Shown here: positions 1,176 to 17,070 of the stretch, in pieces
Position numbering within the stretch: position 1 is the stretch's first letter
Layout of the letters: every line of letters begins with the position of its first letter
Source: a virus
Taxonomy: Duplodnaviria; Heunggongvirae; Uroviricota; Caudoviricetes
Length of the DNA: 19,577 nt
Reading direction: 5' to 3' (one strand)
IMG/VR virus record: IMGVR_UViG_2698536387_000012
Position numbers and translations under genes: made by a program
The notes under the pieces: model-generated
What the model saw: only the letters and a program-made list of their open reading frames with translations
What the model was told of the DNA's origin: nothing
Database searches by the model: none

Positions 1176-1382
1176 TCAGTCAACCACCAGGGAATAATCC
1201 TTCGAATTCTTATCGTGCTTCACCAACGCTGCCTCAATTGCCCTGAATGCTTCCAGAGACACCTGATGTTCTATACATGCAATTACAACATCCGGGTAAC
1301 TCATAGAAATGGTGCTATTAAGCATATTTTTTACACGAATCACATCCAACGAGAGTTCATCAGCAGATTGTTCTTTATTCAT
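1176..1382 (-). CDS. ynfO: Small prophage protein, YnfO/YbcW-like, 68 aa
   Basis: [23 protein letters not shown]...; ATG at 1382 with GGAG 7 nt upstream; position between nohA and ydfO matches Qin/DLP12 gene order as recalled. Confidence 0.6.
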
Positions 1383-1682
1383 TTTGTCGCTCCATGCGTT
1401 TGCTCGTCATCTAGCGGTTAAAATATTACTTCAAATCTTACTGCATAAAAGAGGAAAAGTATGAAAGTTTGAGTACATCGACCTTACATACATCTGTCGG
1501 TTGCATATCCCTCCTGGATGCCAGCAAGGCTCAATTTTGTTACGCAATCAACACTATTCATTAAAAACAGGCTTAATATTTGACATAAATCATCAACAAA
1601 ACACAAAGAGGTCAGACCAGATTGAAACAATAAACACGATAATGCTAACTACGCGCCATCGTATCACATGGAAGGTTTACCA

Positions 1683-2114
1683 ATGGCTCAGGCTGCCATT
1701 TTTAAAGAAATATTCGATCAAGTGCGTAAAGATTTAAACTGTGAATTATTTTATTCTGAGCTAAAACGTCACAATGTCTCACTTTATATTTACTATTTAG
1801 CCACAGATAATATTCACATTGTGTTAGAAAACGACAACATAGTGTTAGTAAAAGGACTCAAAAAGGTTGTAAATGTTAAATTCTCCAGAAACAAACATCT
1901 TATAGAGACCTCCTATAATAAGTTGAAATCAAAAGAAATCACATTTCAACAATACAGGGAAAATCTTGCTAAAGCAGGAGTTTTCCGATGGGTTACAAAT
2001 ATCCAGGAACACCAAAGATATTACTATGCCTTTGATAACTCATTACTATTTACTGAAAGCATCCAGAAAATTACTGAAAGCATCCAGAAAACTACACAGA
2101 TCTTACCACGCTAA
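1683..2114 (+). CDS. ydfO: YdfO-like protein (DUF1398 family as recalled), 143 aa
   Basis: ATG at 1683 preceded by GGAAGG (7-nt spacing); [30 protein letters not shown]... The track's upstream ATG at 1668 lacks an SD. Contains an in-frame 21-bp tandem duplication near the 3' end. Confidence 0.8.
2050..2091 (+). repeat. Perfect 21-bp tandem duplication (2 copies of ttactgaaagcatccagaaaa) inside ydfO
   Basis: Read directly; gives the in-frame repeat [14 protein letters not shown] in the protein. Confidence 0.9.
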
Positions 2115-2216
2115 ACCATAACGTCCGGCTTCTCTCACTCCTGAGCCGGACTGCATTGGTTTAATAAAAACCATCAACAATTGTGATTTAGATATTCGGA
2201 ACCATTCAAATATAAC

Positions 2217-2240
2217 AAAACCCCGTAAAAACGAGGTTTA
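2217..2240 (-). terminator. Weak intrinsic terminator candidate downstream of gnsB
   Basis: Minus-strand CCUCG-UUUUUA-CGGGG (one G-U wobble) followed by UUUU. Confidence 0.35.
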
Positions 2241-2265
2241 TGGATAAATTTTATTATTGAATACA

Positions 2266-2439
2266 TCAGATTAAATTAATCTTGACATCATAGCTTTCAA
2301 GACCCGTCATTTTTTCCCGTGCGGTAAACTGAATACTGGTAACTTCTTTCCCGGTCTTTTTCTTAAGTTCAATAATTTTTTTTGTTATATATTCAGAAAT
2401 ATCTGCTTCTGCTTTTGTTTTTAAGTCTTCAATATTCAT
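2266..2439 (-). CDS. gnsB: GnsB, 57 aa
   Basis: Hand translation MNIEDLKTKAEADISEYITKKIIELKKKTGKEVTSIQFTAREKMTGLESYDVKINLI; GAGG 5 nt upstream. An in-frame ATG one codon upstream (2442) is also possible. Below the ORF-track cutoff. Confidence 0.85.
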   Translation of the reverse strand: MNIEDLKTKAEADISEYITKKIIELKKKTGKEVTSIQFTAREKMTGLESYDVKINLI

Positions 2440-2610
2440 CATTTCCTCTTTTAGTCTGTTATGACTTTCCAGTTACACAGTAAGTCGATTATATGGTGCA
2501 AACGTGTAAAAGATAAGATGAAACATCGCAATAATCAACATACGATAGTCTAAATTTTACACAAACAGACAAAGAGAATTTTCCTGAATTATCAATGCAA
2601 TAGCATCAAA

Positions 2611-2766
2611 TCAACTCAAGAGCCTTATTGCTGCTTCCAGAATTTCTTCTGAAGTAACATGTCGATCCGCGGCTACATAAATGACTTTATGATCTCCGGT
2701 CAGAGATGGAAACCCTGCGGCCATTACAGTAAGGTGTGTTTTTTCGCCATTTGGATATTCACGCAT
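2611..2766 (-). CDS. ynfN: YnfN-like small protein (51 aa if started at MREYPNG...)
   Basis: Open frame extends upstream to in-frame ATGs at 2787 and 2841 and a TTG at 2883; none has a convincing SD. The 51-aa version matches the K-12 YnfN length as recalled. Start uncertain. Confidence 0.5.
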   Translation of the reverse strand: MREYPNGEKTHLTVMAAGFPSLTGDHKVIYVAADRHVTSEEILEAAIRLLS

Positions 2767-2885
2767 GATGGTGTTAACTCCAGTCATCGCTGGCACTACC
2801 ACTGCTGGTTCAGAGTTAAAAAAAACTATGATTTTTTTCATGATGTTACCGTAGTATGTGAGTATCCATCGAATAGACACCAAGC

Positions 2886-2905
2886 AAAAAAGCTCCCGAA
2901 GGAGC
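2886..2905 (-). terminator. Rho-independent terminator downstream of cspI
   Basis: Minus-strand GCUCC-UUCG-GGAGC hairpin followed by UUUUUU. Confidence 0.7.
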
Positions 2906-3112
2906 CTTCATTTTCACTTTTTTAAATCCAACGACAGACGGCTGGCATTTAAGTATTGTGAAATATTATCAAATGTAATCATCATTGATTTACAAAAGAT
3001 ACATTTTGCCCCGAAAGGATTCATGTCAGAAACATCAAAAGATGATGTTCTATACTGGGAACCATGACAACACGGGCATCTAAAGTGAATATGGTTTGTA
3101 ATATTGTCTACC

Positions 3113-3325
3113 TCAAAGCGCCACTACATGAACAGCGGCAGGACCTTTAGGTCCGTTCTCAATACCAAATTCAACTTCCTGATTCTCAGTTAATGTTTTG
3201 AAATCGTTGCTCTGAATTGCTGAGAAATGGACAAACACATCTTTGCTGCCATCTTTCGGCGTGATGAAACCAAAACCTTTTTCAGGGTTAAACCATTTCA
3301 CTAAACCAGTCATTTTGTTAGACAT
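3113..3325 (-). CDS. cspI: Cold-shock protein CspI, 70 aa
   Basis: [38 protein letters not shown]... carries the CspA-family RNP motifs (KGFGFI, VFVHF). Confidence 0.9.
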
Positions 3326-3686
3326 AATTATTACCTTTTGAAGAAATTAGCCCTTGGGCAGAATGGTCCGAAAAAAATATCAGAGAGAAAAACCAACAAG
3401 GAAATCTCAAGAGGTACAAATAATAAAATTATAACAATGACTGCTTCAGATAAATTTGTAACAAACCAGAACACCATTAACGCATGATTAACCACCCATA
3501 GCAAGGATTACTTTTGTAAAGAAAAACACAGCAATGAAAGAATAGCTTTATTTATTAATAAAACGTGTCATTCTGATTAAGACCTTTTATCTTACCCTTA
3601 AGATTTCAGGAATTTTGGCTCATGGAAGAGTCCTTTTTATTCAAATTTTACATTCCGCGATGTAAATGTTCCGATTTAATATTACC

Positions 3687-5026: not shown

Positions 5027-5242
5027 TTACTCTCCTCTCGCAGCCTTACGCCTGTCTTCTTTAATCTTGAAATAAAGATTTGTCAGATACGTCAGCAGGC
5101 CAAAAACCAGGCTACCCAGCACACCGATTGCAGCCCACTGTGACGGAGTTACTTTATCGAGTAACTGCAATGCCCAGAAACCAGCATTACCCGCCGATGT
5201 GCCATAGGCAACACCTGTTGTTAACTTATCCATTGATTTCAT
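5027..5242 (-). CDS. essQ: Class II holin (phage-21-type pinholin), 71 aa, with dual-start motif MKSM
   Basis: [71 protein letters not shown] closely resembles S21 as recalled; two TM segments; Met1/Met4 dual start. The track ORF extends to a TTG at 5317. Confidence 0.8.
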
Positions 5243-5461
5243 ATCCTCACCCCGATGTACACGGATGGTGCAATATGTTTGAAAAGATCGGAGTCTACGG
5301 GGTAGTTTTGACAGCACACGTTGTTCTCAACGGCGCTAAAAAAACATACACATTAAAAATGTGGGTAATTATTTTGAAAGAAAGTCATATATAAAATAAT
5401 AATACGAGAAATGTTTTCATATTTAGTGTACTGTATACGGCCATTTATACAGGAAAAGCCT

Positions 5462-5632
5462 ATGTCAGAACGTAAAAACTCAAAATCACGCCGTAATTAT
5501 CTCGTTAAATGTTCCTGCCCAAACTGCACCCAAGAGTCAGAACACAGTTTTTCAAGAGTACAAAAAGGTGCCCTTTTGATCTGCCCTCATTGCAACAAAG
5601 TATTCCAGACAAATCTTAAAGCTGTAGCCTGA
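5462..5632 (+). CDS. Small zinc-ribbon protein candidate, 56 aa
   Basis: ATG at 5462 with AGGA 7 nt upstream; MSERKNSKSRRNYLVKCSCPNCTQESEHSFSRVQKGALLICPHCNKVFQTNLKAVA has two Cys pairs (CSCPNC, CPHC). Opposite in direction to the late operon. Confidence 0.4.
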   Translation: MSERKNSKSRRNYLVKCSCPNCTQESEHSFSRVQKGALLICPHCNKVFQTNLKAVA

Positions 5633-5691
5633 TTGATTTTATTAGTAACAAGTATTTTTTATATTTTAATAATATATTTAAAGCAGATAAT

Positions 5692-5714
5692 AAAAAACCC
5701 GCCTGAGCGGGTTT
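5692..5714 (-). terminator. Intrinsic terminator (bidirectional hairpin, stronger on the minus strand)
   Basis: AAAAAA-CCCGC-CTGA-GCGGG-TTT; the minus strand has a 6-U tract after the stem. Lies downstream of cspB. Confidence 0.6.
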
Positions 5715-5995
5715 GAGATTGTGGTGCTTTTTGTGGGAGTCATCCACTTACGCACTTTGTTTTGCCATGCCAGCAGTTAGCTTCTGCTGTAAAACTATTC
5801 ATGCAGCAAACCTGCACTTCACCACAATGGTTAGCATACTTTTCCTGATTAAGATTTTGCCAAATATGCTAGCCATTGTTTCATGTATTGGACCTCCTTA
5901 TTTTTTATTAAAGAGATCCAATATTCACTACTCTGTCCGTATCTCTACTCAGGCATCAGCCTTCTTCGTTATCGTATACAGACGAGCGATGAATT

Positions 5996-6211
5996 TTAAT
6001 CAGTAATGATGACATTTGCTGCTGCAGGACCTTTAGCACCACTCTCTATAGAGAAGGTAACCTTTTGACCTTCAAATAAGGTTCGATAATTATCATTCTG
6101 AATCGCAGAAAAATGCACAAACACATCTTTACTACCATCAACAGGAGAAATAAAGCCGAAACCTTTATCAGCGTTAAACCATTTTACTAAACCAGTCATT
6201 TTATTTGACAT
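5996..6211 (-). CDS. cspB: Cold-shock protein CspB, 71 aa
   Basis: [71 protein letters not shown]; about 300-bp upstream non-coding leader typical of cspA-family genes. Confidence 0.9.
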
Positions 6212-6511
6212 TCTACATTCCTTAACTTGAGCCTTTCGGCATAAATGGTTTGCATAACAGAAACGACTTCGTACTTAATTGGAGAGACTCAAAGAAGGAA
6301 TAAGTGAATAACACCTGAAATGAGAACTGCTTTAGTAAACTACTTCGTATATCGTCTGTTCTTCAAACCGACGCAATCATTAACGCATAGTTGAACATAT
6401 GAAGCAATGTTTATTTTAGACATCCAGCCATCTTCAACCCCATCAAAAAACTATAGCTTTCTTCAGGAACGTGTGTATAGTGCGCCAAGTTATCAGTATT
6501 AAGGAATTTTT

Positions 6512-6724
6512 TTGTCCCGTAAAATGACAGGAATTGTCAAAACCTTTGACGGCAAAAGCGGCAAGGGTCTTATCACCCCATCCGATGGTCGTATCGATGT
6601 CCAGCTTCATGTTTCAGCGCTCAATCTCCGCGATGCAGAAGAAATTACCACCGGATTACGCGTGGAATTTTGCCGGATAAATGGTCTGCGTGGCCCTTCA
6701 GCTGCCAATGTTTACCTTTCATGA
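6512..6724 (+). CDS. cspF: CspA-family protein CspF-like, 70 aa
   Basis: [44 protein letters not shown]...; TTG at 6512 has AAGGAA 5 nt upstream (alternative ATG at 6524). Confidence 0.8.
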
Positions 6725-6778
6725 GCTATATTAAAGCTTTAATTTCAGGCCCCATCGGATCACACATGGAGAGTTTTT

Positions 6779-6868
6779 ATGAATAACCCCGTCTGTCTTG
6801 ATGACTGGTTGATTGGCTTTAAAAGCTTATGCTGTACTTTGGCCGTAATAGCTCTGCTAATAATATAA
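6779..6868 (+). CDS. Candidate small hydrophobic peptide, 29 aa ([29 protein letters not shown])
   Basis: ATG at 6779 with GGAGAG 5 nt upstream; one predicted TM segment. No homology evidence. Confidence 0.3.
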
Positions 6869-7016
6869 TAAGCAGACTCATTGTGTTTAGGGACATTGTA
6901 CTGGAAGAAAACATTTTAAACATCAGGCAAATAACCAAGTCACCAGCTAAATAATAAGTTAACAGACATGAGTCCCGGGATGAGATTCAACATTACCATT
7001 GCCCCATTTAAAGCAC

Positions 7017-7040
7017 AAAACCCGCTCATCAGCGGGTTTT
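7017..7040 (-). terminator. tR'-like intrinsic terminator downstream of the late promoter (bidirectional hairpin)
   Basis: AAAA-CCCGCT-CATC-AGCGGG-TTTT; about 110 nt downstream of the Q stop on the minus strand, about 300 nt downstream of cspF on the plus strand. Confidence 0.6.
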
Positions 7041-7085
7041 CTACTTTTTCTTAACGTCGGGTATACAAAGCCCATCGTTGAAAAA

Positions 7086-7114
7086 ATTTTATCCATATTT
7101 TTTGAAGAATGCAA
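7086..7114 (-). promoter_or_regulatory. PR'-like late promoter candidate (-35 TTGCAT, 17-bp spacer, -10 TAAAAT) just downstream of Q
   Basis: Minus strand reads gtTTGCATtcttcaaaaaatatggaTAAAATtttttc, about 45 nt upstream of the tR'-like hairpin. Confidence 0.4.
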
Positions 7115-7145
7115 ACATCATGTCGCCATCTTCAGCAAAAATCAT

Positions 7146-7898
7146 TTATCTCGTCACCTTCCTCAATTGCGCTTCCGCGTATGCTTCTTCCTGCCAGCAC
7201 TTTGTTACCAGTTTACCAATGACGTCCGCATACCCCTTATACCACTGATAATCGGTCAGGTCTGGTACCAGCTTCTGGACATGACGTCGTGCCAGCGTGG
7301 TCGGTAAACGACTAAACCGGTTTCCATTACAACGCCCACAAATCTTATATACCGGTACGCCATGAAACCGGGTTCTTTTTTCATCCAGAACAATCCCTTT
7401 ACCCTTACACCCTCTGCACGCTGTGCTGGCTTCGCCCTTACCATGGCAATGCTGACATAGTTCCTTCACCCATTCTTCCTTGATTACAGATTCCCCGCGT
7501 CTGTAGTGTTTCACCACTTCGCGCAATACATTATAAAATCCCGTACCTGAACAATGCTCACAGCGAGCCTTACTTGCCGCAGACCTGGAGTAATCAGCAA
7601 AGGCAAAACTCACGAGGTAAGGAATAATCTGTAACCGGATTTCTTCACTCAATTTGTTCAATGTCGGGTTATCCAGTGCCATCGCGTAATTTAGCAGGCC
7701 TTCAATCGCAAACTGAGGGTTCTGAACACCAACTTTTGCCAGAAATAAGGCCAACCCAAGTGGTGCTTTCGACTGCACCATCCCCTGCGCTGCCATTACA
7801 TCCGTAATTGTTAAACAACCGGTGCCTGTCGCTGGAGCGTCATCGCTCAATTTTGGAGATTTTGGGGAGTAATATTTTGGTAAGGCTTCAAGGTTCAT
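7146..7898 (-). CDS. quuQ: Late-gene antiterminator Q, 250 aa
   Basis: Cys/His-rich zinc-binding region (CEHCSGTG...CQHCHGKG...CRGCKGKG...CGRC); ATG at 7898 with GGAG 7 nt upstream. The track start at 7928 is a TTG. Confidence 0.85.
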   Translation of the reverse strand: MNLEALPKYYSPKSPKLSDDAPATGTGCLTITDVMAAQGMVQSKAPLGLALFLAKVGVQNPQFAIEGLLNYAMALDNPTLNKLSEEIRLQIIPYLVSFAFADYSRSAASKARCEHCSGTGFYNVLREVVKHYRRGESVIKEEWVKELCQHCHGKGEASTACRGCKGKGIVLDEKRTRFHGVPVYKICGRCNGNRFSRLPTTLARRHVQKLVPDLTDYQWYKGYADVIGKLVTKCWQEEAYAEAQLRKVTR

Positions 7899-9680: not shown

Positions 9681-9706
9681 AAAAACAAAAACCCGCCGAA
9701 GCGGGT
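9681..9706 (-). terminator. Rho-independent terminator of the relB-relE-hokD operon
   Basis: Minus-strand ACCCGC-UUCG-GCGGGU hairpin followed by UUUUUGUUUUUAUUUU, about 70 nt downstream of the hokD stop. Confidence 0.7.
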
Positions 9707-9775
9707 TAAGTGCGGGTGCGTTGAGGATGCCTGCCACATCAGAGGTGGCGAGGGATTTCTCCCCCGCCGGGTCTC

Positions 9776-9931
9776 TTACTCCTCAGGTTCGTAAGCTGTG
9801 AAGACAGCGACCTCCGTCTGGCCGGTTCGGATTCGTACCTCGCAGAGGTCTTTCCTCGTTACCAGTGCCGTCACTATGACGGTTAAACAGATGACGATCA
9901 GGGCGATTAACATCGCCTTTTGCTGCTTCAT
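9776..9931 (-). CDS. hokD: Hok-family type I toxin HokD (RelF), 51 aa
   Basis: Hand translation MKQQKAMLIALIVICLTVIVTALVTRKDLCEVRIRTGQTEVAVFTAYEPEE; below the ORF-track cutoff. Confidence 0.85.
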   Translation of the reverse strand: MKQQKAMLIALIVICLTVIVTALVTRKDLCEVRIRTGQTEVAVFTAYEPEE

Positions 9932-10002
9932 AGCCTGCTTCTCCTGTCAACGCAAAGCAGAAGTGTCACCTTCGGTGCGAAACAGAGATGTCATGCTTTG
10001 GT

Positions 10003-10290
10003 TCAGAGAATGCGTTTGACCGCCTCGCTATATACTTCCGAGCGTTCTCTTTTCCCAACAGAAATCACGAAAACGACAACTTTCTCGTCTATAACCTGGT
10101 ATACAAGGCGATAGCCTGAAGACCGGAGCTTAATCTTGTAACAATCAGGCATACCACGGAGCTTGTTTGCTTCAATCCGGGGTGACTCAAGTACTTCAAC
10201 CAGCTTCTTTTTCAACTGTTCACGTACCGTCGAGCCCAGCTTTCGCCATTCCTTTAGTGCCCGCTCGTCAAAATCCAGAAAATACGCCAT
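10003..10290 (-). CDS. relE: RelE mRNA-interferase toxin, 95 aa
   Basis: MAYFLDFDERALKEWRKLGSTVREQLKKKLVEVLESPRIEANKLRGMPDCYKIKLRSSGYRLVYQVIDEKVVVFVISVGKRERSEVY... Confidence 0.9.
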   Translation of the reverse strand: MAYFLDFDERALKEWRKLGSTVREQLKKKLVEVLESPRIEANKLRGMPDCYKIKLRSSGYRLVYQVIDEKVVVFVISVGKRERSEVYSEAVKRIL

Positions 10291-10529
10291 CAGAGTTCAT
10301 CCAGCGTCACACGTACTGGCTTAGGATTACGAAGCCGTTCTTTCACTATCTCCACAAGTTCAGCATCTTCATCACTCAGGAGTGTCTGTTTGAACGGCAA
10401 GCGTTCATTGTCAGCGATATACTCGAGCATGAGACGAAGCGCTTCAGAAGGAGTTACACCCATTTTTTCAAGCGCGGCGTAAGAACGCGCTTTAAGTTCA
10501 TCGTCAATACGCAGGTTAATGCTACCCAT
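10290..10529 (-). CDS. relB: RelB antitoxin, 79 aa
   Basis: MGSINLRIDDELKARSYAALEKMGVTPSEALRLMLEYIADNERLPFKQTLLSDEDAELVEIVKERLRNPKPVRVTLDEL; its stop overlaps the relE start. Confidence 0.9.
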   Translation of the reverse strand: MGSINLRIDDELKARSYAALEKMGVTPSEALRLMLEYIADNERLPFKQTLLSDEDAELVEIVKERLRNPKPVRVTLDEL

Positions 10530-10540
10530 GTCTTACACCT

Positions 10541-10593
10541 CTTGTAATTACAAATGTCATTACAAGTATCGCACTACAACATGCTTAGGGCAA
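10541..10593 (-). promoter_or_regulatory. relBE promoter (-35 TTGCCC, -10 GATACT) with relO operator palindromes
   Basis: Minus strand reads TTGCCC-N17-GATACT-TGTAATGACATTTGTAATTACAAG-AGAGGTG-N5-ATG; contains the perfect palindrome TTGTAATTACAA. Confidence 0.7.
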
Positions 10594-10859
10594 GTCACGA
10601 AGGAAGTCAGAAAGTAGTCGTAAGAACGGTGATCACTGTCCGCTTTGTGCCAGGAGCAGCCATTGCTAAGTCCATCCTGTATTGTGCAGGTCAGCTCGCT
10701 TTTAAAGAGTCCGGCCATCATCTTACTGGTACAGACACCATATACTTTGTGACGGTCAGGCTACATATGCACAACTCAACTTATTCATCTATTTTTTGCT
10801 TTAGCATGTCAGTGTTGCTTTCTCGTCGGCGGGTGAGCGGTGACCTGACCTGTCGATAA
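10554..10859 (+). CDS. ydfV: Doubtful ORF (ydfV position in K-12) overlapping the relBE operator, 101 aa
   Basis: ATG lies inside the relO palindrome; no SD; Cys/His/Ser-rich low-complexity translation. Listed only because K-12 annotates an ORF of this length here. Confidence 0.25.
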   Translation: MSLQVSHYNMLRASHEGSQKVVVRTVITVRFVPGAAIAKSILYCAGQLAFKESGHHLTGTDTIYFVTVRLHMHNSTYSSIFCFSMSVLLSRRRVSGDLTCR

Positions 10860-11011
10860 AGGAACGTAGCACGTTTTATGCAACACCCGCATGCGGCAGA
10901 AAATTATTGCCGAACGTTTACCCCTGTCAACAAGCTTTACTTTCTGAGGCGCGCCAGCCCGCGAGGAAAACAATCTGAACATCAAACAATTAATGACACA
11001 AGAAATACGAT

Positions 11012-11038
11012 TAAAGATTTTTTTGTGCATGCCGATAG
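11012..11038 (+). promoter_or_regulatory. Sigma-28 (FliA) promoter of flxA: TAAAGATT-N11-GCCGATAG
   Basis: Near-consensus match to TAAAGTTT-N11-GCCGATAA, 24 nt upstream of the flxA ATG. Confidence 0.7.
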
Positions 11039-11061
11039 TGCTTTTTTAAAAGGAGAAATCT

Positions 11062-11394
11062 ATGTCTGTCACAATTCAGGGAAATACCTCAACCGTTATT
11101 TCAAACAACTCCGCCCCGGAAGGAACATCAGAAATAGCCAAAATCACAAGACAAATTCAGGTGCTGACTGAAAAGCTTGGGAAAATCTCATCGGAAGAGG
11201 GGATGACGACACAGCAGAAAAAAGAAATGGCTGCATTGGTACAGAAGCAAATTGAAAGCCTCAGGGCTCAACTGGAGCAGTTGTTAAGGCAGCAGGCAGA
11301 GAAAAAGAATAAAGACGCGACAGTTCAGCCTGATAAAAAAGAAGAGAAAAAAGACGATACAAATACCGCTGGCACCATTGATATTTACGTCTAA
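11062..11394 (+). CDS. flxA: FlxA, 110 aa
   Basis: MSVTIQGNTSTVISNNSAPEGTSEIAKITRQIQVLTEKLGK...; AGGAG 6 nt upstream. Confidence 0.9.
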   Translation: MSVTIQGNTSTVISNNSAPEGTSEIAKITRQIQVLTEKLGKISSEEGMTTQQKKEMAALVQKQIESLRAQLEQLLRQQAEKKNKDATVQPDKKEEKKDDTNTAGTIDIYV

Positions 11395-11408
11395 GTGACA
11401 GCCGTATT

Positions 11409-11431
11409 GTGGCCCTCATCGGGCCACTTTT
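11409..11431 (+). terminator. Rho-independent terminator of flxA
   Basis: GTGGCCC-TCATC-GGGCCAC followed by TTTT. Confidence 0.7.
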
Positions 11432-11597
11432 CGCCATCAGCCTTTTCTTTAAAGACATATTATCTTTGTATCATTTCTGATAGTTAACATTACAAGATAT
11501 AAGTAATGGACGCACTCCCAATTAGTCTATTTAAATCGCCACGAGTTTAACTGACAACCCATGATCAATTATGAATTGCAACTATTTCTGTAGTCAC

Positions 11598-13230
11598 TTT
11601 TGTGGGGACAGTCCACAAAACTGCCAACTTCCGCTTCTTGCTCTTAGCGGACATTAGCATAGGCTATTTACCATAACGCCTCATTACGCGCACCGCCCAG
11701 ACTGACTCAGCGCGTTTCTGGCATATCCCCGGTAAAACAAGTAACAAACCACCCGAAAATGAACACCAGAAACGCGACTTAAGAATCTACCCTATGAATG
11801 GATATGCACTCAACCGAATCGATCTTGGTTTCAATCTATTTTATCGGGATCAGGCTTCTTTTTAGGTAACTTCGGGGGCTTAACTTGCTGATGACTTTGC
11901 GTTCGGCGCGTAAGCCAGGGATGGTCAGCTTTAGATTTAACATAGTATTTTGAGCGTAAATCAATACGGGCATTATCCACTCGTTCATGGACACTCTTTT
12001 CATCATCCAGTGGTATAGGCTCCGGGCCATCAACATACTTTTCCCAGCCCAGCGCTTTCCCGTCATACAGAACGTTAATTTCACCGTCAAAGTTCTCACA
12101 TACAGTAACAACCGAATGCCTAAGTCGATATCCCCGGCCCTCACTGCGTACCTGAAACGCACTGCTTTTGTACTGGAAAGTGAGATTTTTAGACAGAACG
12201 CGCTTCGCCTGTAGGCTGAAGATATAACCCAGTTCCTCTTCAGAATGGTGCACATCAAGATGAGCATTATCAGTAGTACGAGGCGACGTAGCGAACCGGT
12301 TGTTATAGGCTTCAATAAAGGTCGGCAACCATGCATTTGCTGTTTCAATATCACTGATATTCTGAAGCCGCATTTCTTTGACCAGCCTGTCCTGTAGTGT
12401 CTGATTGGCGCGCTCTACCCGCCCTTTTGCCTGCGGGCTGTTGGCATGGATTGGCTCGATGCCCAGTGTCTTTATCGCACGAGTGAACTGGGTCAGCTCA
12501 CCTTCCCGCTCTGGGTTATTTACCCTGAATATACTGTGTCTATCAGAGTAGAGAGCGAGCGGTACGCCATGATCATTAAGGTAACCCCGGAGGGTTTCCA
12601 TGTAAGCCCGGGTTGTTTCAGCAGGCACAAAACGCAACGCCATCAACGCACTGGTGGCATCATCAATGAAAACGATCAGTGTACATCTGGGGCCTCGATT
12701 TTCAAACCAGTCATGAGGTGAGCCATCAATCTGGATCAGTTCACCGTAAGATGGTCGTCGCATGCGGCGTTGATATATACGGGCAATTTTACGACGGCGT
12801 TCACGCCATAACCCCTCTTCTATCATCCACTTTCTGAGAGTTTCAACGGATAAAGATAAACCGTGTATCTCGCGCAATTTTTCGCACGCAAACGTAGGTC
12901 CAAAATCAGCGTAACGGCCTTTGAGGAGTGAAATTACTGTTGCTCTGAATTCAGTAGAAAAGGAATTATTAGGACGCTTTCCACGTCGGTGGGAAACCAG
13001 ACCAGAAGGCCCTTCATTTCTATACCGTTGCACCAGACGTTTAACCTGCCGAATAGAAATGCCAATGCGTGCCGCAGCTTGTTCCTGAGTAATATGTCGA
13101 TTAATTGACTCCTGAATAATCTGAAGTCGGTGGAGTTCCTTATGACTCATCGTAACAGTCTCTTTGATCATGAAAAATCCCCCAGAGAATTGTCTGGGGA
13201 CATTTTAGAATGGTTCAAAGGGGACATTAC
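11598..13230 (-). mobile_element. Insertion sequence carrying the transposase; boundaries are guesses
   Basis: I could not find terminal inverted repeats or target duplications. Bounds are bracketed by hairpins at 11598-11620 (TTTTGTGG-N7-CCACAAAA) and 13180-13199 (CCCCAGA-N6-TCTGGGG) and by repeated GGGGACA motifs. Confidence 0.25.
11831..13171 (-). CDS. DDE transposase with N-terminal HTH and rve/integrase-core domain (IS481/ISNCY-like), 446 aa
   Basis: N-terminal HTH (ITQEQAAARIGISIRQVKRLVQRY), catalytic core (IQIDGSPHDW...IVFIDDATS...LYSDRHSIF...KGRVERANQTL). The family call is approximate. Confidence 0.8.
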   Translation of the reverse strand: MIKETVTMSHKELHRLQIIQESINRHITQEQAAARIGISIRQVKRLVQRYRNEGPSGLVSHRRGKRPNNSFSTEFRATVISLLKGRYADFGPTFACEKLREIHGLSLSVETLRKWMIEEGLWRERRRKIARIYQRRMRRPSYGELIQIDGSPHDWFENRGPRCTLIVFIDDATSALMALRFVPAETTRAYMETLRGYLNDHGVPLALYSDRHSIFRVNNPEREGELTQFTRAIKTLGIEPIHANSPQAKGRVERANQTLQDRLVKEMRLQNISDIETANAWLPTFIEAYNNRFATSPRTTDNAHLDVHHSEEELGYIFSLQAKRVLSKNLTFQYKSSAFQVRSEGRGYRLRHSVVTVCENFDGEINVLYDGKALGWEKYVDGPEPIPLDDEKSVHERVDNARIDLRSKYYVKSKADHPWLTRRTQSHQQVKPPKLPKKKPDPDKID

Positions 13231-13624
13231 AGCTTGATGTTAACAATAGCCTGCTTCTCCTTGCCTTCCGGCACTCGCGACAGATTATGTTTAGACGACT
13301 GTCGTAGCGACGTATTTCTCCGTCAGGTAATGACCAGATAAGGTCCGGATCAACCACAGCAGGTTTCTTCACCTTTGCCCTCGAGAGTTTTTTGCGGGCG
13401 TTTTGCCAGTCCTTACGCGCCTGTTCAGACGGGAATAACCCGTAACCAGAGCTGTATACATCGCCACTGGCAACCAGCTCTCTGGCCAGAACGCTCATCA
13501 GATATCTTGTTGCCCCAGTTTTAGCTTCCAGTTGTCGTAACGTCTCGCGCCCACTCTGGCGTACGAGTTCCACCACCTGCCCTTTAATTTTTTCCCGCTC
13601 TTCTTGTGTAAAAACTTTTGCCAC
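13205..13624 (-). CDS. Hypothetical protein, 139 aa, downstream of the O-like gene; C-terminus possibly altered by the adjacent IS
   Basis: GTG at 13624 preceded by AGGAGG (4-nt spacing); the 3' end abuts the transposase region. Confidence 0.5.
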   Translation of the reverse strand: MAKVFTQEEREKIKGQVVELVRQSGRETLRQLEAKTGATRYLMSVLARELVASGDVYSSGYGLFPSEQARKDWQNARKKLSRAKVKKPAVVDPDLIWSLPDGEIRRYDSRLNIICRECRKARRSRLLLTSSCNVPFEPF

Positions 13625-13664
13625 AAGTCCTCCTGAACATTACTTTATACCCTAAAATCAACAC

Positions 13665-14630
13665 TTATCCCCTGAAACCAGGCGGAATTTCTGTATCCGG
13701 TTCAGAAATATGATTCACACAACGCTTTACAGGTGAACGTCCCAGGCGGATGACCAGTTCGTCCCATTTTTCGCGGAGTTTTGACGGGCTCATGATGTTT
13801 TTTACCCAGAATTGATCTCGCTGTACCCGACCAAACATTTCGCAAATTTGTCTGTGGCTTCTGCCATCCAGCATCCGCATTGTGCGCACGTCATTGGCCC
13901 AGGCTGTCCAGTTAGGCTCTTTTGGTCGCATGATCTCTCCATCGTCGCTGGCAGCCTGTTCGTAAAGGTTCACGATCCGCCCCCAAATCCACTGCGCACA
14001 CGCCAAATCCTCCCTGCTACCCCACTGGCGTTTTTTCGCACTAAACACAACCGCGTCGGGGTTCCGGGTTAAAAAATCCTGTTCAGCGGTCTGCGGGTCC
14101 GGTTGCGAAGCTTCCGGACGAAAAGTGTTTTTATTCTCTGTAGTAATCTCTGTTGTATTCTCTGTAAGATCATCAGGCCATTTTGACCCGATGACATTGG
14201 GTCGTTTTGAACCAATGGAGCGTTTCATTTTGACCTCTTCCATCGTGTCATTTTGACCTGATGGAGCGGCGCATTTTAAACCGATGGATTCGCTCAATTT
14301 GCCACCATCTAAAAGCTCGCTCCCGTAGTTGATCGTGTAGAAATTGGTCATATCGCGCTTTGATTTATTGAGCTTTTCACAACGCAAAAGCCCCAGCGTT
14401 TTCAGACTTGCAAACGCGCGCTTTAACGTTGACTCTGACCAGAATGGGAACTGTTCCAGCCATTGTTCCGTTGTGTTGTAAATCCAGCGAACACCATCAC
14501 ATTCCATGCCGGAATTGGTATCTCTCAACCAGTAATGCAACTGCTGCAACACAATGGCTTCATTTAAGCCAATCTTCATCGCAAGCTGTGTGTTTATAAC
14601 CAGTGGGCGTTCAGCAAAAAGAAGGCTCAT
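13665..14630 (-). CDS. Replication initiator, lambda-O-like / replisome-organizer type, 321 aa
   Basis: N-terminal MSLLFAERPLVINTQLAMKIGLNEAIVLQQLHYWL... resembles phage replisome-organizer N-domains; an iteron array sits inside the coding sequence as in lambda O. ATG at 14630 chosen; the track ORF begins at a TTG at 14684. Confidence 0.65.
   Translation of the reverse strand: MSLLFAERPLVINTQLAMKIGLNEAIVLQQLHYWLRDTNSGMECDGVRWIYNTTEQWLEQFPFWSESTLKRAFASLKTLGLLRCEKLNKSKRDMTNFYTINYGSELLDGGKLSESIGLKCAAPSGQNDTMEEVKMKRSIGSKRPNVIGSKWPDDLTENTTEITTENKNTFRPEASQPDPQTAEQDFLTRNPDAVVFSAKKRQWGSREDLACAQWIWGRIVNLYEQAASDDGEIMRPKEPNWTAWANDVRTMRMLDGRSHRQICEMFGRVQRDQFWVKNIMSPSKLREKWDELVIRLGRSPVKRCVNHISEPDTEIPPGFRG
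14134..14169. repeat. Three copies of a 12-bp tandem repeat (ttctctgtagta / atctctgttgta / ttctctgtaaga) flanking the iterons
   Basis: Read directly; encodes TEN/TEI-type repeats in the O-like protein. Confidence 0.6.
14179..14295. repeat. Five iterons at 22-24-bp spacing, consensus about TCATTTTGACCnGATGG; putative ori
   Basis: TTTTGACC-like cores start at 14181, 14205, 14227, 14251 and 14274, inside the O-like gene. Confidence 0.6.
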
Positions 14631-17012: not shown

Positions 17013-17070
17013 TTTCTGGTGACGTTTGGCGGTATCAGTTTTACTCCGTGACTGCTCTGCCGCCCTTTTT
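17013..17070 (+). ncRNA. dicF: DicF small RNA (cell-division inhibitor sRNA)
   Basis: Matches DicF as I recall it: UUUCUGGUGACGUUUGGCGGUAUCAGUUUUACUCCGUGACUGCUCUGCCGCCCUUUUU; ends in a terminator-like stem plus U-tract; sits upstream of dicB. Confidence 0.85.

Follow-up and report, generated by a model that had tools for sequence, protein, structure and literature searches.

A probably complete IS1202-family transposon carrying relBE and flxA, inserted at the start codon of hokD in a viral contig

Genes and boundaries at the locus

The viral contig IMGVR_UViG_2698536387_000012 of IMG/VR (Caudoviricetes; its full 19,577 nt are referred to as the window) contains a 3301-bp unit at 9945-13245, which the comparison of junctions delimits at both ends and which carries a transposase gene, relBE, flxA and a cer-like site. 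Read in the direction of the transposase gene, its order is transposase-proximal terminal inverted repeat (IRL), transposase gene, cer-like Xer site, variable cargo (flxA, ydfV), relB-relE and transposase-distal terminal inverted repeat (IRR). We are confident that this unit is a complete IS1202-family transposon, with regard to its structure, its history of insertion into hokD and a later deletion, and its mobility. Loci used for comparison are denoted by L numbers.

The tips of the element read 5'-TGT...ACA-3' (TGTCAACG... at 9945, ...GTTAACA at 13245). The IRR (9945-9974, plus strand, TGTCAACGCAAAGCAGAAGTGTCACCTTCG) is conserved in all cargo variants, and the IRL (13216-13245, minus strand, TGTTAACATCAAGCTGTAATGTCCCCTTTG) is delimited by its junction and by comparison of the ends. 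Together they form imperfect inverted repeats, in which 15 of 22, 18 of 26 and 21 of 30 positions match. Subterminal TGTC repeats follow 20 and 44/45 nt from each tip (9964 and 9989; 13226 and 13202). At the left junction, ...hokD-CAT AGCCTGCTTCTCC / TGTCAACGC..., the element starts at 9945, and at the right junction, ...GTTAACA / ATAGCCTGCTTCTCC TTGCC..., it ends at 13245. The presence of ATAGCCTGCTTCTCC at both junctions therefore marks a 15-bp target-site duplication, with the left copy at 9930-9944 and a perfectly matching right copy at 13246-13260. On the minus strand this sequence (GGAGAAGCAGGCTAT) comprises the Shine-Dalgarno sequence of hokD and the AT of its ATG, and it occurs as a single copy in the empty site of locus L091.

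A preliminary description of positions 11435-13330, made from the letters of the window, had found neither inverted repeats nor a duplication. There is indeed no pair of ends inside that region, and a search for end repeats or a duplication near the transposase gene found none within 11300-13700; the right end at 13245 lies inside, but the left end was missed because it lies 1.5 kb outside. Nor are the ends unusual, as had been considered, since TGT...ACA tips and imperfect repeats are hallmarks of the IS1202 family (Harmer & Hall, PMC10132070) and, together with a long duplication, are the norm in this family. A GGGGACA motif had been noticed three times on the plus strand. It occurs at 11604, 13196 and 13220 (the latter two had been placed at 13195 and 13222), a count reached by 31 of 200 shuffled sequences. 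The copies at 13196-13202 and 13220-13226 are the subterminal repeats of the IRL side. The copy at 11604 was rejected as a vestigial end, its orientation being wrong and the count within chance, and is most likely fortuitous. A 27-28-bp duplication of IS1202 type at 11626-11653/13246-13273 was likewise rejected, as just 14 of 28 positions match and the true left end was found.

Comparison with cargo variants distinguishes two conserved modules, one on the IRR side (9945-10653) and one on the transposase side (11626-13245), which enclose the variable cargo (10654-11625, plus strand) with a junction at 11625/11626. The cargo of the window consists of most of ydfV (10554-10859) and of flxA (11062-11394) with its downstream sequence; other variants hold different genes here, and conserve only the first ~20 codons of ydfV. 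The IRR-side module contains relE (10003-10290, minus strand; Pfam ParE_toxin, 2e-13) and relB (10290-10529, minus strand; Pfam RelB, 1e-32), both with protein accessions identical to those of a K-12-like strain. These adjacent genes for a RelB antitoxin and a toxin of the RelE/ParE fold constitute a type II toxin-antitoxin pair of the RelBE kind. The region upstream of relBE (10530-10653) forms the inner edge of the module, where homology with a 12.8-kb chr/ncr variant stops at 10653. The earlier notion of a transposase gene inserted between flxA and the replication module is consequently replaced: flxA, ydfV, relB and relE are cargo, and the target is hokD.

Insertion into hokD and subsequent deletion

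The type I toxin gene hokD (9776-9931, minus strand) is recognised by its open reading frame (ORF), by its annotation as HokD in a record of 100% identity and by the uninterrupted hokD with leader in L091. Its coding sequence is intact and now lies directly 3' of the transposon-borne relBE. L091 is a Qin-like prophage without the element, in which the order is rem, hokD, leader, two pseudogenes, DUF977, an O-like gene, ydaT, dicC and dicA. It defines the junctions, as the preliminary description had expected of an uninterrupted homologous prophage. We also reconstructed the empty site by joining the hokD flank from the window to the leader flank from L003, which retains the full sok/hok leader beside the right end of the element, with the 15-bp sequence included once. 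The resulting site occurs uninterrupted at up to 99.2% identity, with at least 80% coverage in 3810 of 5426 complete Escherichia coli genomes. The Rfam sok model spans the empty site in L091, and in L003 it begins exactly at the right end of the element. These comparisons show that the element was inserted by a 15-bp staggered cut in the ribosome-binding site and start codon of hokD, and that the insertion separates hokD from its promoter, from mok and from the Sok target.

The window itself retains 28 bp of the leader (13246-13273). Positions 13246-13274 match L091 at 5231-5259, and from 13260 onward the window matches L091 from 7231 onward. As the match jumps from 5259 to 7231, ~2 kb are missing from the window. 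The last leader remnant and the deletion joint (13261-13274) include a microhomology of ~10 bp, CTTYCGGCAC (13265-13274), which joins the remnant to the 3' part of a DUF977 gene; a later deletion of ~2 kb between 10-bp microhomologies is thereby shown to have removed the remaining hok leader and the 3' end of DUF977. Its product is a chimeric DUF977 ORF of 139 aa (amino acids; 13205-13624, minus strand; Pfam DUF977), recognised by comparing its protein with the products of intact DUF977 genes. The final ~20 codons of this ORF are made up of leader remnant, duplication and IRL and are therefore foreign to the gene to which the deletion fused them. The abutment of this ORF and the transposase gene, which had been noticed earlier, exists (the transposase gene starts at 13171, 33 bp from the stop at 13205) but is due to the secondary deletion. 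Matches to window positions 11000-13700 in E. coli fall into full matches, matches ending at 13274 (L003), K-12-like matches ending at 12015 and DUF977 genes matching from 13260.

An Rfam scan of window positions 9700-13400 gave no match. Elsewhere in the window Rfam recognises two cspA-type thermoregulator leaders (cspI, cspB) and DicF RNA (3086-3470, 5980-6372, 17014-17065), which are ordinary constituents of a Qin-like prophage.

The transposase

The transposase gene (11831-13171, minus strand) encodes a protein of 446 aa of the IS1202 family (ISEsa1 type), and its earlier description as a helix-turn-helix (HTH) plus rve DDE transposase is borne out. Pfam assigns HTH_28/29/32/23 and rve_3, the domain order is HTH-HTH, RNase H (DDE) and beta-barrel, and the NCBIfam ISNCY_2 transposase model matches with 465.5 bits (cut-off 250). 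D149, D210, E253, Q260 (E+7) and D170-D171 are invariant across 39 homologues. The ratio of nonsynonymous to synonymous substitution rates against relatives is 0.08-0.09, and the gene is under purifying selection. An AlphaFold model (predicted local distance difference test score 74) has its best whole-protein fold matches in IstA, the TnsB of the V-K CRISPR-associated transposon (CAST), MuA and Tn7 TnsB; a search of the Protein Data Bank by sequence returned nothing beyond a marginal integrase match. Between the ends of the element, ORF and annotation checks revealed no further transposition genes, in particular no TnsA, TnsC/MuB/IstB or TnsD/Cas partner.

The hairpins noticed earlier near both flanks of the gene were found at 11590-11628 and 13173-13206. 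A hairpin scan places a terminator-like hairpin followed by ATTTTTC at 13179-13200 (minus strand), just 5' of the transposase ATG, and this structure may block read-through from outside (e.g., from the hok promoter) or sequester the ribosome-binding site. A simple scan found no sigma-70 promoter for the gene.

RefSeq labels the identical DNA as 'IS1202-like element ISEsa1 family transposase', an annotation of the Prokaryotic Genome Annotation Pipeline (PGAP). In a RefSeq record identical to the window (L001, 9832-11151), PGAP splits the intact 446-aa ORF into YdfW and a pseudogene 'missing C-terminus', which looks like a carry-over of K-12 gene names. A variant whose first HTH has lost 27 bp in frame (window 13094-13120; L210, L214, E. 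coli W) encodes 437 aa in a 3274-bp element and is present in ~20 viral-contig copies and many E. coli genomes; this form is possibly inactive and vertically inherited. The window holds the full 446-aa form, as do the plasmids.

The non-coding stretch and its cer-like site

Between the stop codons of flxA (11394) and of the transposase gene (11831) lie 436 bp without a convincing ORF. The ~400 bp of non-coding sequence thought to precede the transposase gene are thus real, but lie downstream of it. This stretch is composed of the tail of the flxA cargo (11395-11625) and a part of the conserved transposase module (11626-11830). The latter contains the sole match in the window to a cer-like XerC/XerD core (GGTGCGCGTAA-TGAGGCG-TTATGGTAAAT; 11666-11694, minus strand), in which an 11-bp XerC arm and an 11-bp XerD arm flank a centre within the 6-8 bp of the known layout; the centres of relatives have 7 or 8 bp. 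The XerC arm is turned towards the transposase gene, whose 3' end is ~140 bp away. On the XerC side follows putative cer-type accessory sequence (11695-11819, minus strand), and ~150 bp align with the cer region of the ColE1-type plasmid of L093 (CP079192) and of many similar small plasmids. Some 100 bp from the core, an ARG-box-like sequence, GTGCATATCCATTCATAG, was recognised by eye. In the published layout the accessory sequence extends over ~200 bp and holds an ArgR box at a constant distance; the stretch in the window agrees with this layout in its position. Of 14 delimited elements, 13 possess exactly one cer-like site, always in the same orientation, with conserved arms and a centre that varies between lineages.

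The inner edge of the module, between the XerD arm and the cargo, is formed by a hairpin TCCGCT-N10-AGCGGA (11630-11651), which is kept with compensatory changes in all lineages, among them elements whose transposases are 20% apart. This hairpin is absent from ColE1-type cer regions.

Two further lineages deserve mention. An element with 86% transposase identity at a hok leader (L257 7001-11956, Klebsiella JAXKKF010000002) has a gene for a 258-aa tyrosine recombinase beside the transposase gene, together with a MazE/PIN pair and ars cargo; no cer-like site was found in ~8 kb downstream of its transposase gene, a search that ended short of the distal end. In the lineage with 80-81% identity (L253 7001-9210, Kosakonia chromosome; L252 4313-6500, plasmid with psiAB region), likewise at hok leaders, the transposase gene is separated from the cer-like site by a ParE-type toxin-antitoxin pair, and the cargo includes arsRDABC and a GnsAB toxin gene. 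An Xer-mediated exchange of cargo in the manner of dif modules was rejected, as each element has a single site and the cargo junctions (11625/6; 11656 in L002) fall outside the core.

Relatives, cargo variants and distribution

Plasmids of Enterobacter, Salmonella and Phytobacter carry DNA with 99.3-99.6% identity to the element. Two copies (L007, L010) match the window from ~9930-9940 to 13273, including relE, relB, ydfV and flxA; the 3.3-kb unit is inserted in two other hok genes, with the duplications ATGGCCTTCTTCTCC and ATCATAGCCCCTCCA. The apparent 'short form' of L008 and L009 is a variant of 12,843 bp, in which chrBA (chromate) and ncrABCY (nickel) replace ydfV-flxA and which occupies two different hok loci with its own 15-bp duplication at each. 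A scan of one genome per species yielded further variants of 4.3-9.1 kb, and cargo other than that mentioned comprises a cation-efflux gene with cytochrome b561, ars genes with a ClC channel, LysR/TauE/thioesterase genes and tartrate-dehydrogenase genes. Over the whole range of relatives (3.3-12.8 kb) the transposase end and the relBE end are kept, while the cargo is swapped. The 14 delimited relatives have perfect duplications of 13-16 bp, and eight delimited elements reside in eight hok alleles with their own perfect 13-15-bp duplication each. Beside the IRR, relBE is found in 12 of the 14, and a TacA/GNAT pair takes its place in two Scandinavium elements.

Distant relatives confirm that position 9945 is a genuine end of the family. 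Simple insertion sequences (IS) of 1449-1466 bp in Hahella (62% aa identity, more than 10 copies) and Rhabdochlamydiaceae (50%) share the IRL (TGTTAGCC..CTGTAATGTCCCC) and the IRR (..TTGCGTTGACA) with the element and are flanked by duplications of 15-16 bp.

At least part of the element is present in 1310 of the 5426 complete E. coli genomes and at least 80% of it in 760, with a median of one and a maximum of three copies. Another E. coli prophage (L002 3001-3657, CP180609) contains the ydfV'-flxA module (window 10629-11656) beside tail-fibre genes, including the conserved hairpin and lacking Xer site and transposase gene. The 3' end of the transposase gene is duplicated over ~60 bp in a Scandinavium element (L025, element positions 1380-3295). 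The duplication flanks an inserted gene for a 401-aa pentapeptide/glycosyltransferase-like protein, and as a result of this insert 1.65 kb separate the transposase gene from the cer-like site.

Preference for the start regions of type I toxin genes

A search for the IRL in metagenomic and viral contigs, pooled with the other loci, provided 56 distinct flanks of 45 nt. Hok leaders account for 38 of these; without exception, the IRL is on the leader side and the point of insertion is no more than a few bases from the ATG of hok. Relatives thus reside at the same spot of many different hok genes, in constant orientation and with differing duplications of 13-16 bp, and lineages with 80-86% transposase identity, including chromosomal copies of Kosakonia and copies of Klebsiella, are likewise found at hok. 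A simple IS of 1448 bp with 76% aa identity in its transposase (L248 7927-9374, Salmonella enterica CP019410) is inserted exactly at the start codon of an ldr type I toxin gene next to bcsG, with the 15-bp duplication CAAGGCGGCTATATG; ldr is thus a second toxin family struck at this kind of position. Complete elements with 14-16-bp duplications also exist in non-hok DNA (L016, L023, L025, L030, L044), and GCA[A/T/C] ends at the outer edge of the duplication in 6 of 17 non-hok sites (~1 expected), in agreement with hok leaders, where GGCAA comes before the duplication. The share of hok among the flanks, the other lineages, the ldr insertion and the GCA motif together argue that the preference is real, though not absolute, and we regard it as likely that it is a property of the transposase.

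Several hok loci contain tandem junctions of IRR, duplication and IRL (L028 from 11554 onward, L108, L168), arranged head to tail with only the duplication in between. At these junctions the copy of the duplication nearer the leader has served as target again, so that the determinant of recognition probably lies on the leader side. The arrays suggest that target immunity is lacking and that the leader-side copy remains a hot spot. In a Citrobacter contig (L027 9880-9927) the IRL abuts the coding side of hok in inverted position, which implies an inversion or recombination between two copies.

relBE and hokD in K-12

K-12 holds a truncated copy of the element, corresponding to window 9945-12015. 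In K-12-type strains an additional deletion extends from 12016 into ydaT and leaves ydfW, the remnant of the transposase C-terminus, and ydfX, a remnant of ydaT. As the K-12 copy is a truncated copy of the element, the relB-relE-hokD operon of K-12 arose from the insertion, and the comparison shows that hokD was left, with its duplicated Shine-Dalgarno sequence, behind relB-relE as the K-12 'relBEF' operon. Cotranscription of relBE and hokD in K-12 is documented (PMC3598666).

Mobile DNA that disrupts hok is a feature which the hok loci of the K-12 chromosome share with the window, and in both hokD lacks mok/sok and lies behind relBE. Pedersen and Gerdes reportedly found in 1999 that IS elements adjoin the chromosomal hok loci of K-12 and that the hokD/relF locus is 'rearranged'. 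In the searchable literature we found no attribution of this rearrangement to a transposon that brought relBE, in which the present reading differs.

Proposed mechanism and alternatives

We propose that a single DDE transposase resembling TnsB, MuA and IstA would bind both ends, at the terminal repeat as well as at the subterminal TGTC repeats. Its choice of target would be guided by the leader side of the initiation region of a type I toxin gene, with GCAA flush with the duplication and the palindrome formed by leader and start codon as candidate determinants. Transposition is probably replicative because a TnsA-like partner is lacking, and the host proteins XerCD, ArgR and PepA would then resolve the cointegrate at the internal cer-like site. 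relBE would stabilise any replicon that receives the element. Tentatively, and with less than even probability, we extend this to a clade of single-protein TnsB-like transposons which homes to the translation-initiation regions of hok and ldr in fixed orientation, carries its own type II pair, and relies for cointegrates on XerCD at a cer-like site or on a tyrosine recombinase of its own, the relB-relE-hokD operon of K-12 being a by-product.

Several observations weigh against parts of this interpretation. About one quarter to one third of the distinct flanks are non-hok, the simple relatives of Hahella lack an obvious target preference, and selection, together with the spread of plasmids and prophages that bear hok, could make the bias towards hok look larger than it is. 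The mobility of the element is deduced from comparative genomics, and many E. coli copies, those with the 27-bp deletion, may be inactive. Replicative transposition is assumed by analogy with Mu, V-K CAST TnsB and TnsA-deficient Tn7 and is not a result. ISfinder gives a size of 1609 bp for ISEsa1, with which we compared the element through a published table. Finally, simple IS relatives transpose without a cer site, which could be ordinary plasmid-stability cargo.

The size of ISEsa1 leads to the alternative that the mobile unit is an IS of ~1.6 kb (~11626-13245), without duplication, and that longer units arise through a surrogate distal end in the manner of ISEcp1. The figures quoted from ISfinder in PMC10132070 (1609 bp, terminal inverted repeats matching 15/22, no duplication) fit such a unit, as does the limit of homology between cargo variants at 11626, 1620 bp from the IRL tip, and the flxA module of L002 ends without a transposase at 11656. 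There is, however, no IRL-like sequence or TGT tip at 11626-11700, and no copy among ~250 loci is bounded there; the delimited enterobacterial elements all end at the distal IRR beside relE or an equivalent pair. The distal IRR is, moreover, the sequence that closes the simple IS relatives, and with it the 15/22 match reported for ISEsa1 is reproduced exactly. A plasmid 'short form' (11626-13273) was rejected as a real IS, as the two plasmid copies in question are the 12.8-kb variant, with the distal end 11 kb away and matching duplications of their own. Searches of plasmids, genomes and proteins found no Cronobacter or ISfinder copy of ISEsa1. We consider such a short unit improbable. Even less credible, to the point of being nearly negligible, is the assumption that the 3.3-kb block is no transposon and that relBE, flxA and the transposase gene spread by homologous recombination between hok loci, the repeats being coincidental. 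Hok loci do share leader and coding sequence that could support recombination, and most E. coli copies occupy the same prophage locus with a median of one per genome. Yet the empty site has the 15-bp sequence as a single copy, whereas the element has it on both sides, the perfect duplication at each hok allele matches that allele's own sequence, complete elements with 14-16-bp duplications reside in non-hok DNA, and the ends match those of multi-copy simple IS. We give the same minimal weight to the earlier suggestion that the transposase gene is a decaying IS remnant which has lost its ends. It draws on the truncated copies in K-12 (9945-12015) and many other strains and on the PGAP call of a pseudogene and 'ydfW', but the ORF of the window is full length (446 aa) with intact catalytic residues under purifying selection (dN/dS ~0.09), both ends and the duplication are intact, near-identical copies occur in several plasmids, and the PGAP call reflects K-12 names.

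The role of the cer-like site is more evenly balanced. That it resolves cointegrates is suggested by sequence comparison, and we put this at somewhat below an even chance; a role in plasmid stability is about equally tenable. Close to even odds apply to the alternative that the site is passenger DNA for plasmid maintenance, together with relBE, or the relic of an insertion beside a plasmid Xer site, without a role in transposition. Its homology to ColE1-type cer, accessory sequence included, fits this origin, as do the absence of such a site from simple IS relatives, the known position of other IS1202-family members beside Xer sites and the ParE-type pair between transposase gene and site in one lineage. 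On the other hand, elements that differ by 20% in their transposase and have unrelated cargo each keep one copy in fixed orientation, the centre changes without constraint from lineage to lineage, as would be the case if each copy recombined with its own duplicate only, and in another lineage a tyrosine recombinase gene appears to take the place of the site, as judged from ~8 kb downstream of the transposase gene. The XerC arm is also located ~140 bp from the 3' end of the transposase gene, and not 5 bp from the IRL as in the Xer-targeting subgroup.

Significance

The target preference and the set of modules have not been described before, whereas the IS family is a known one. The complete IS1202-family transposon delimited here corrects the published picture of the ISEsa1 branch as lacking duplication and target and redefines it as cargo-carrying transposons with clear ends. 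The start regions of type I toxin genes represent a second kind of site-specific targeting in the IS1202 family, besides Xer sites, and since a lone transposase does the targeting, target recognition is directly testable. The much-studied chromosomal toxin-antitoxin locus relBE is shown to be a passenger of a transposon, which explains both the existence of a hokD without mok/sok and its cotranscription with relBE. On this backbone, nickel, chromate, arsenic and cation-efflux genes reach the hok loci of conjugative plasmids in Enterobacter, Klebsiella, Salmonella and Phytobacter, a route of cargo that plasmid annotation currently misses. Should the cer-like site resolve cointegrates, the transposon would borrow host Xer instead of encoding a resolvase; we know of no other transposon that does so.

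Comparison with known elements

In the searchable literature we found no link of ISEsa1 or IS1202 with hok or relBE, and a survey of Hok from 2026 says no more than that IS genes are often found near hok. Within the IS1202 family, ISEsa1 itself is listed with 1609 bp, a transposase of 439 aa, terminal inverted repeats matching 15/22, no duplication and no target, in a third 'no-TSD' (no target-site duplication) subgroup (PMC10132070, quoting ISfinder). The element shares with it the family name given by PGAP, the size of the transposase (446 vs 439 aa) and the 15/22 match. By that table it differs from ISEsa1 in a length of 3301 bp (relatives up to 12.8 kb), duplications of 13-16 bp, toxin-antitoxin genes, cer-like site, cargo and hok preference. 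The traits of the family are present, namely an HTH plus DDE core with Q at E+7 and a DD pair between the first two D, and an additional subterminal copy of the inner repeat near each end, for which a role as second binding site is predicted.

With its 15-bp duplication the element falls into the same length class of duplications as the ISTde1 subgroup (15-17 bp; Siguier et al., 10.1101/2022.12.17.520857), to which it also corresponds in the TGT...ACA ends and the single TnsB-like transposase. The members of this subgroup are described as simple IS without target specificity, in contrast to the element, and Harmer & Hall place ISEsa1 in a separate transposase clade. In the account of Siguier et al. 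targeting is confined to the 5-bp subgroup. The ISAjo2/ISAba32 subgroup, the 'dif site hunters', belongs to the same family and likewise combines a lone transposase specific for site and orientation with an association with XerCD. Its members generate duplications of 5-6 bp and insert beside an external dif/pdif site, 5 bp separating the IRL from its XerC arm; the element, by contrast, has a duplication of 15 bp, a toxin start as target and a hok leader flanking its IRL, and its sole Xer site is internal.

Among other transposons, the Tn3 family likewise combines a transposase with an adjacent resolution function, a type II toxin-antitoxin pair and passengers, and toxin-antitoxin pairs are known in its members. 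It differs by an unrelated transposase of ~1000 aa, 38-bp repeats, a 5-bp duplication and a resolvase of its own, so that the element, with its ISNCY_2-type protein of 446 aa, its 15-bp duplication and the host XerCD it would borrow, stands outside this family. The TnsB proteins of Tn7 and V-K CAST, MuA and IstA resemble its transposase in fold, and their elements resemble it in the TGT/ACA tips, the repeated internal sites at the ends and targeted insertion. Tn7, Mu and IS21 employ partner proteins and produce 5-bp duplications, in contrast to the element, which lies apart from the Tn7-like transposons in having its transposase as sole transposition protein and a duplication of 15 bp.

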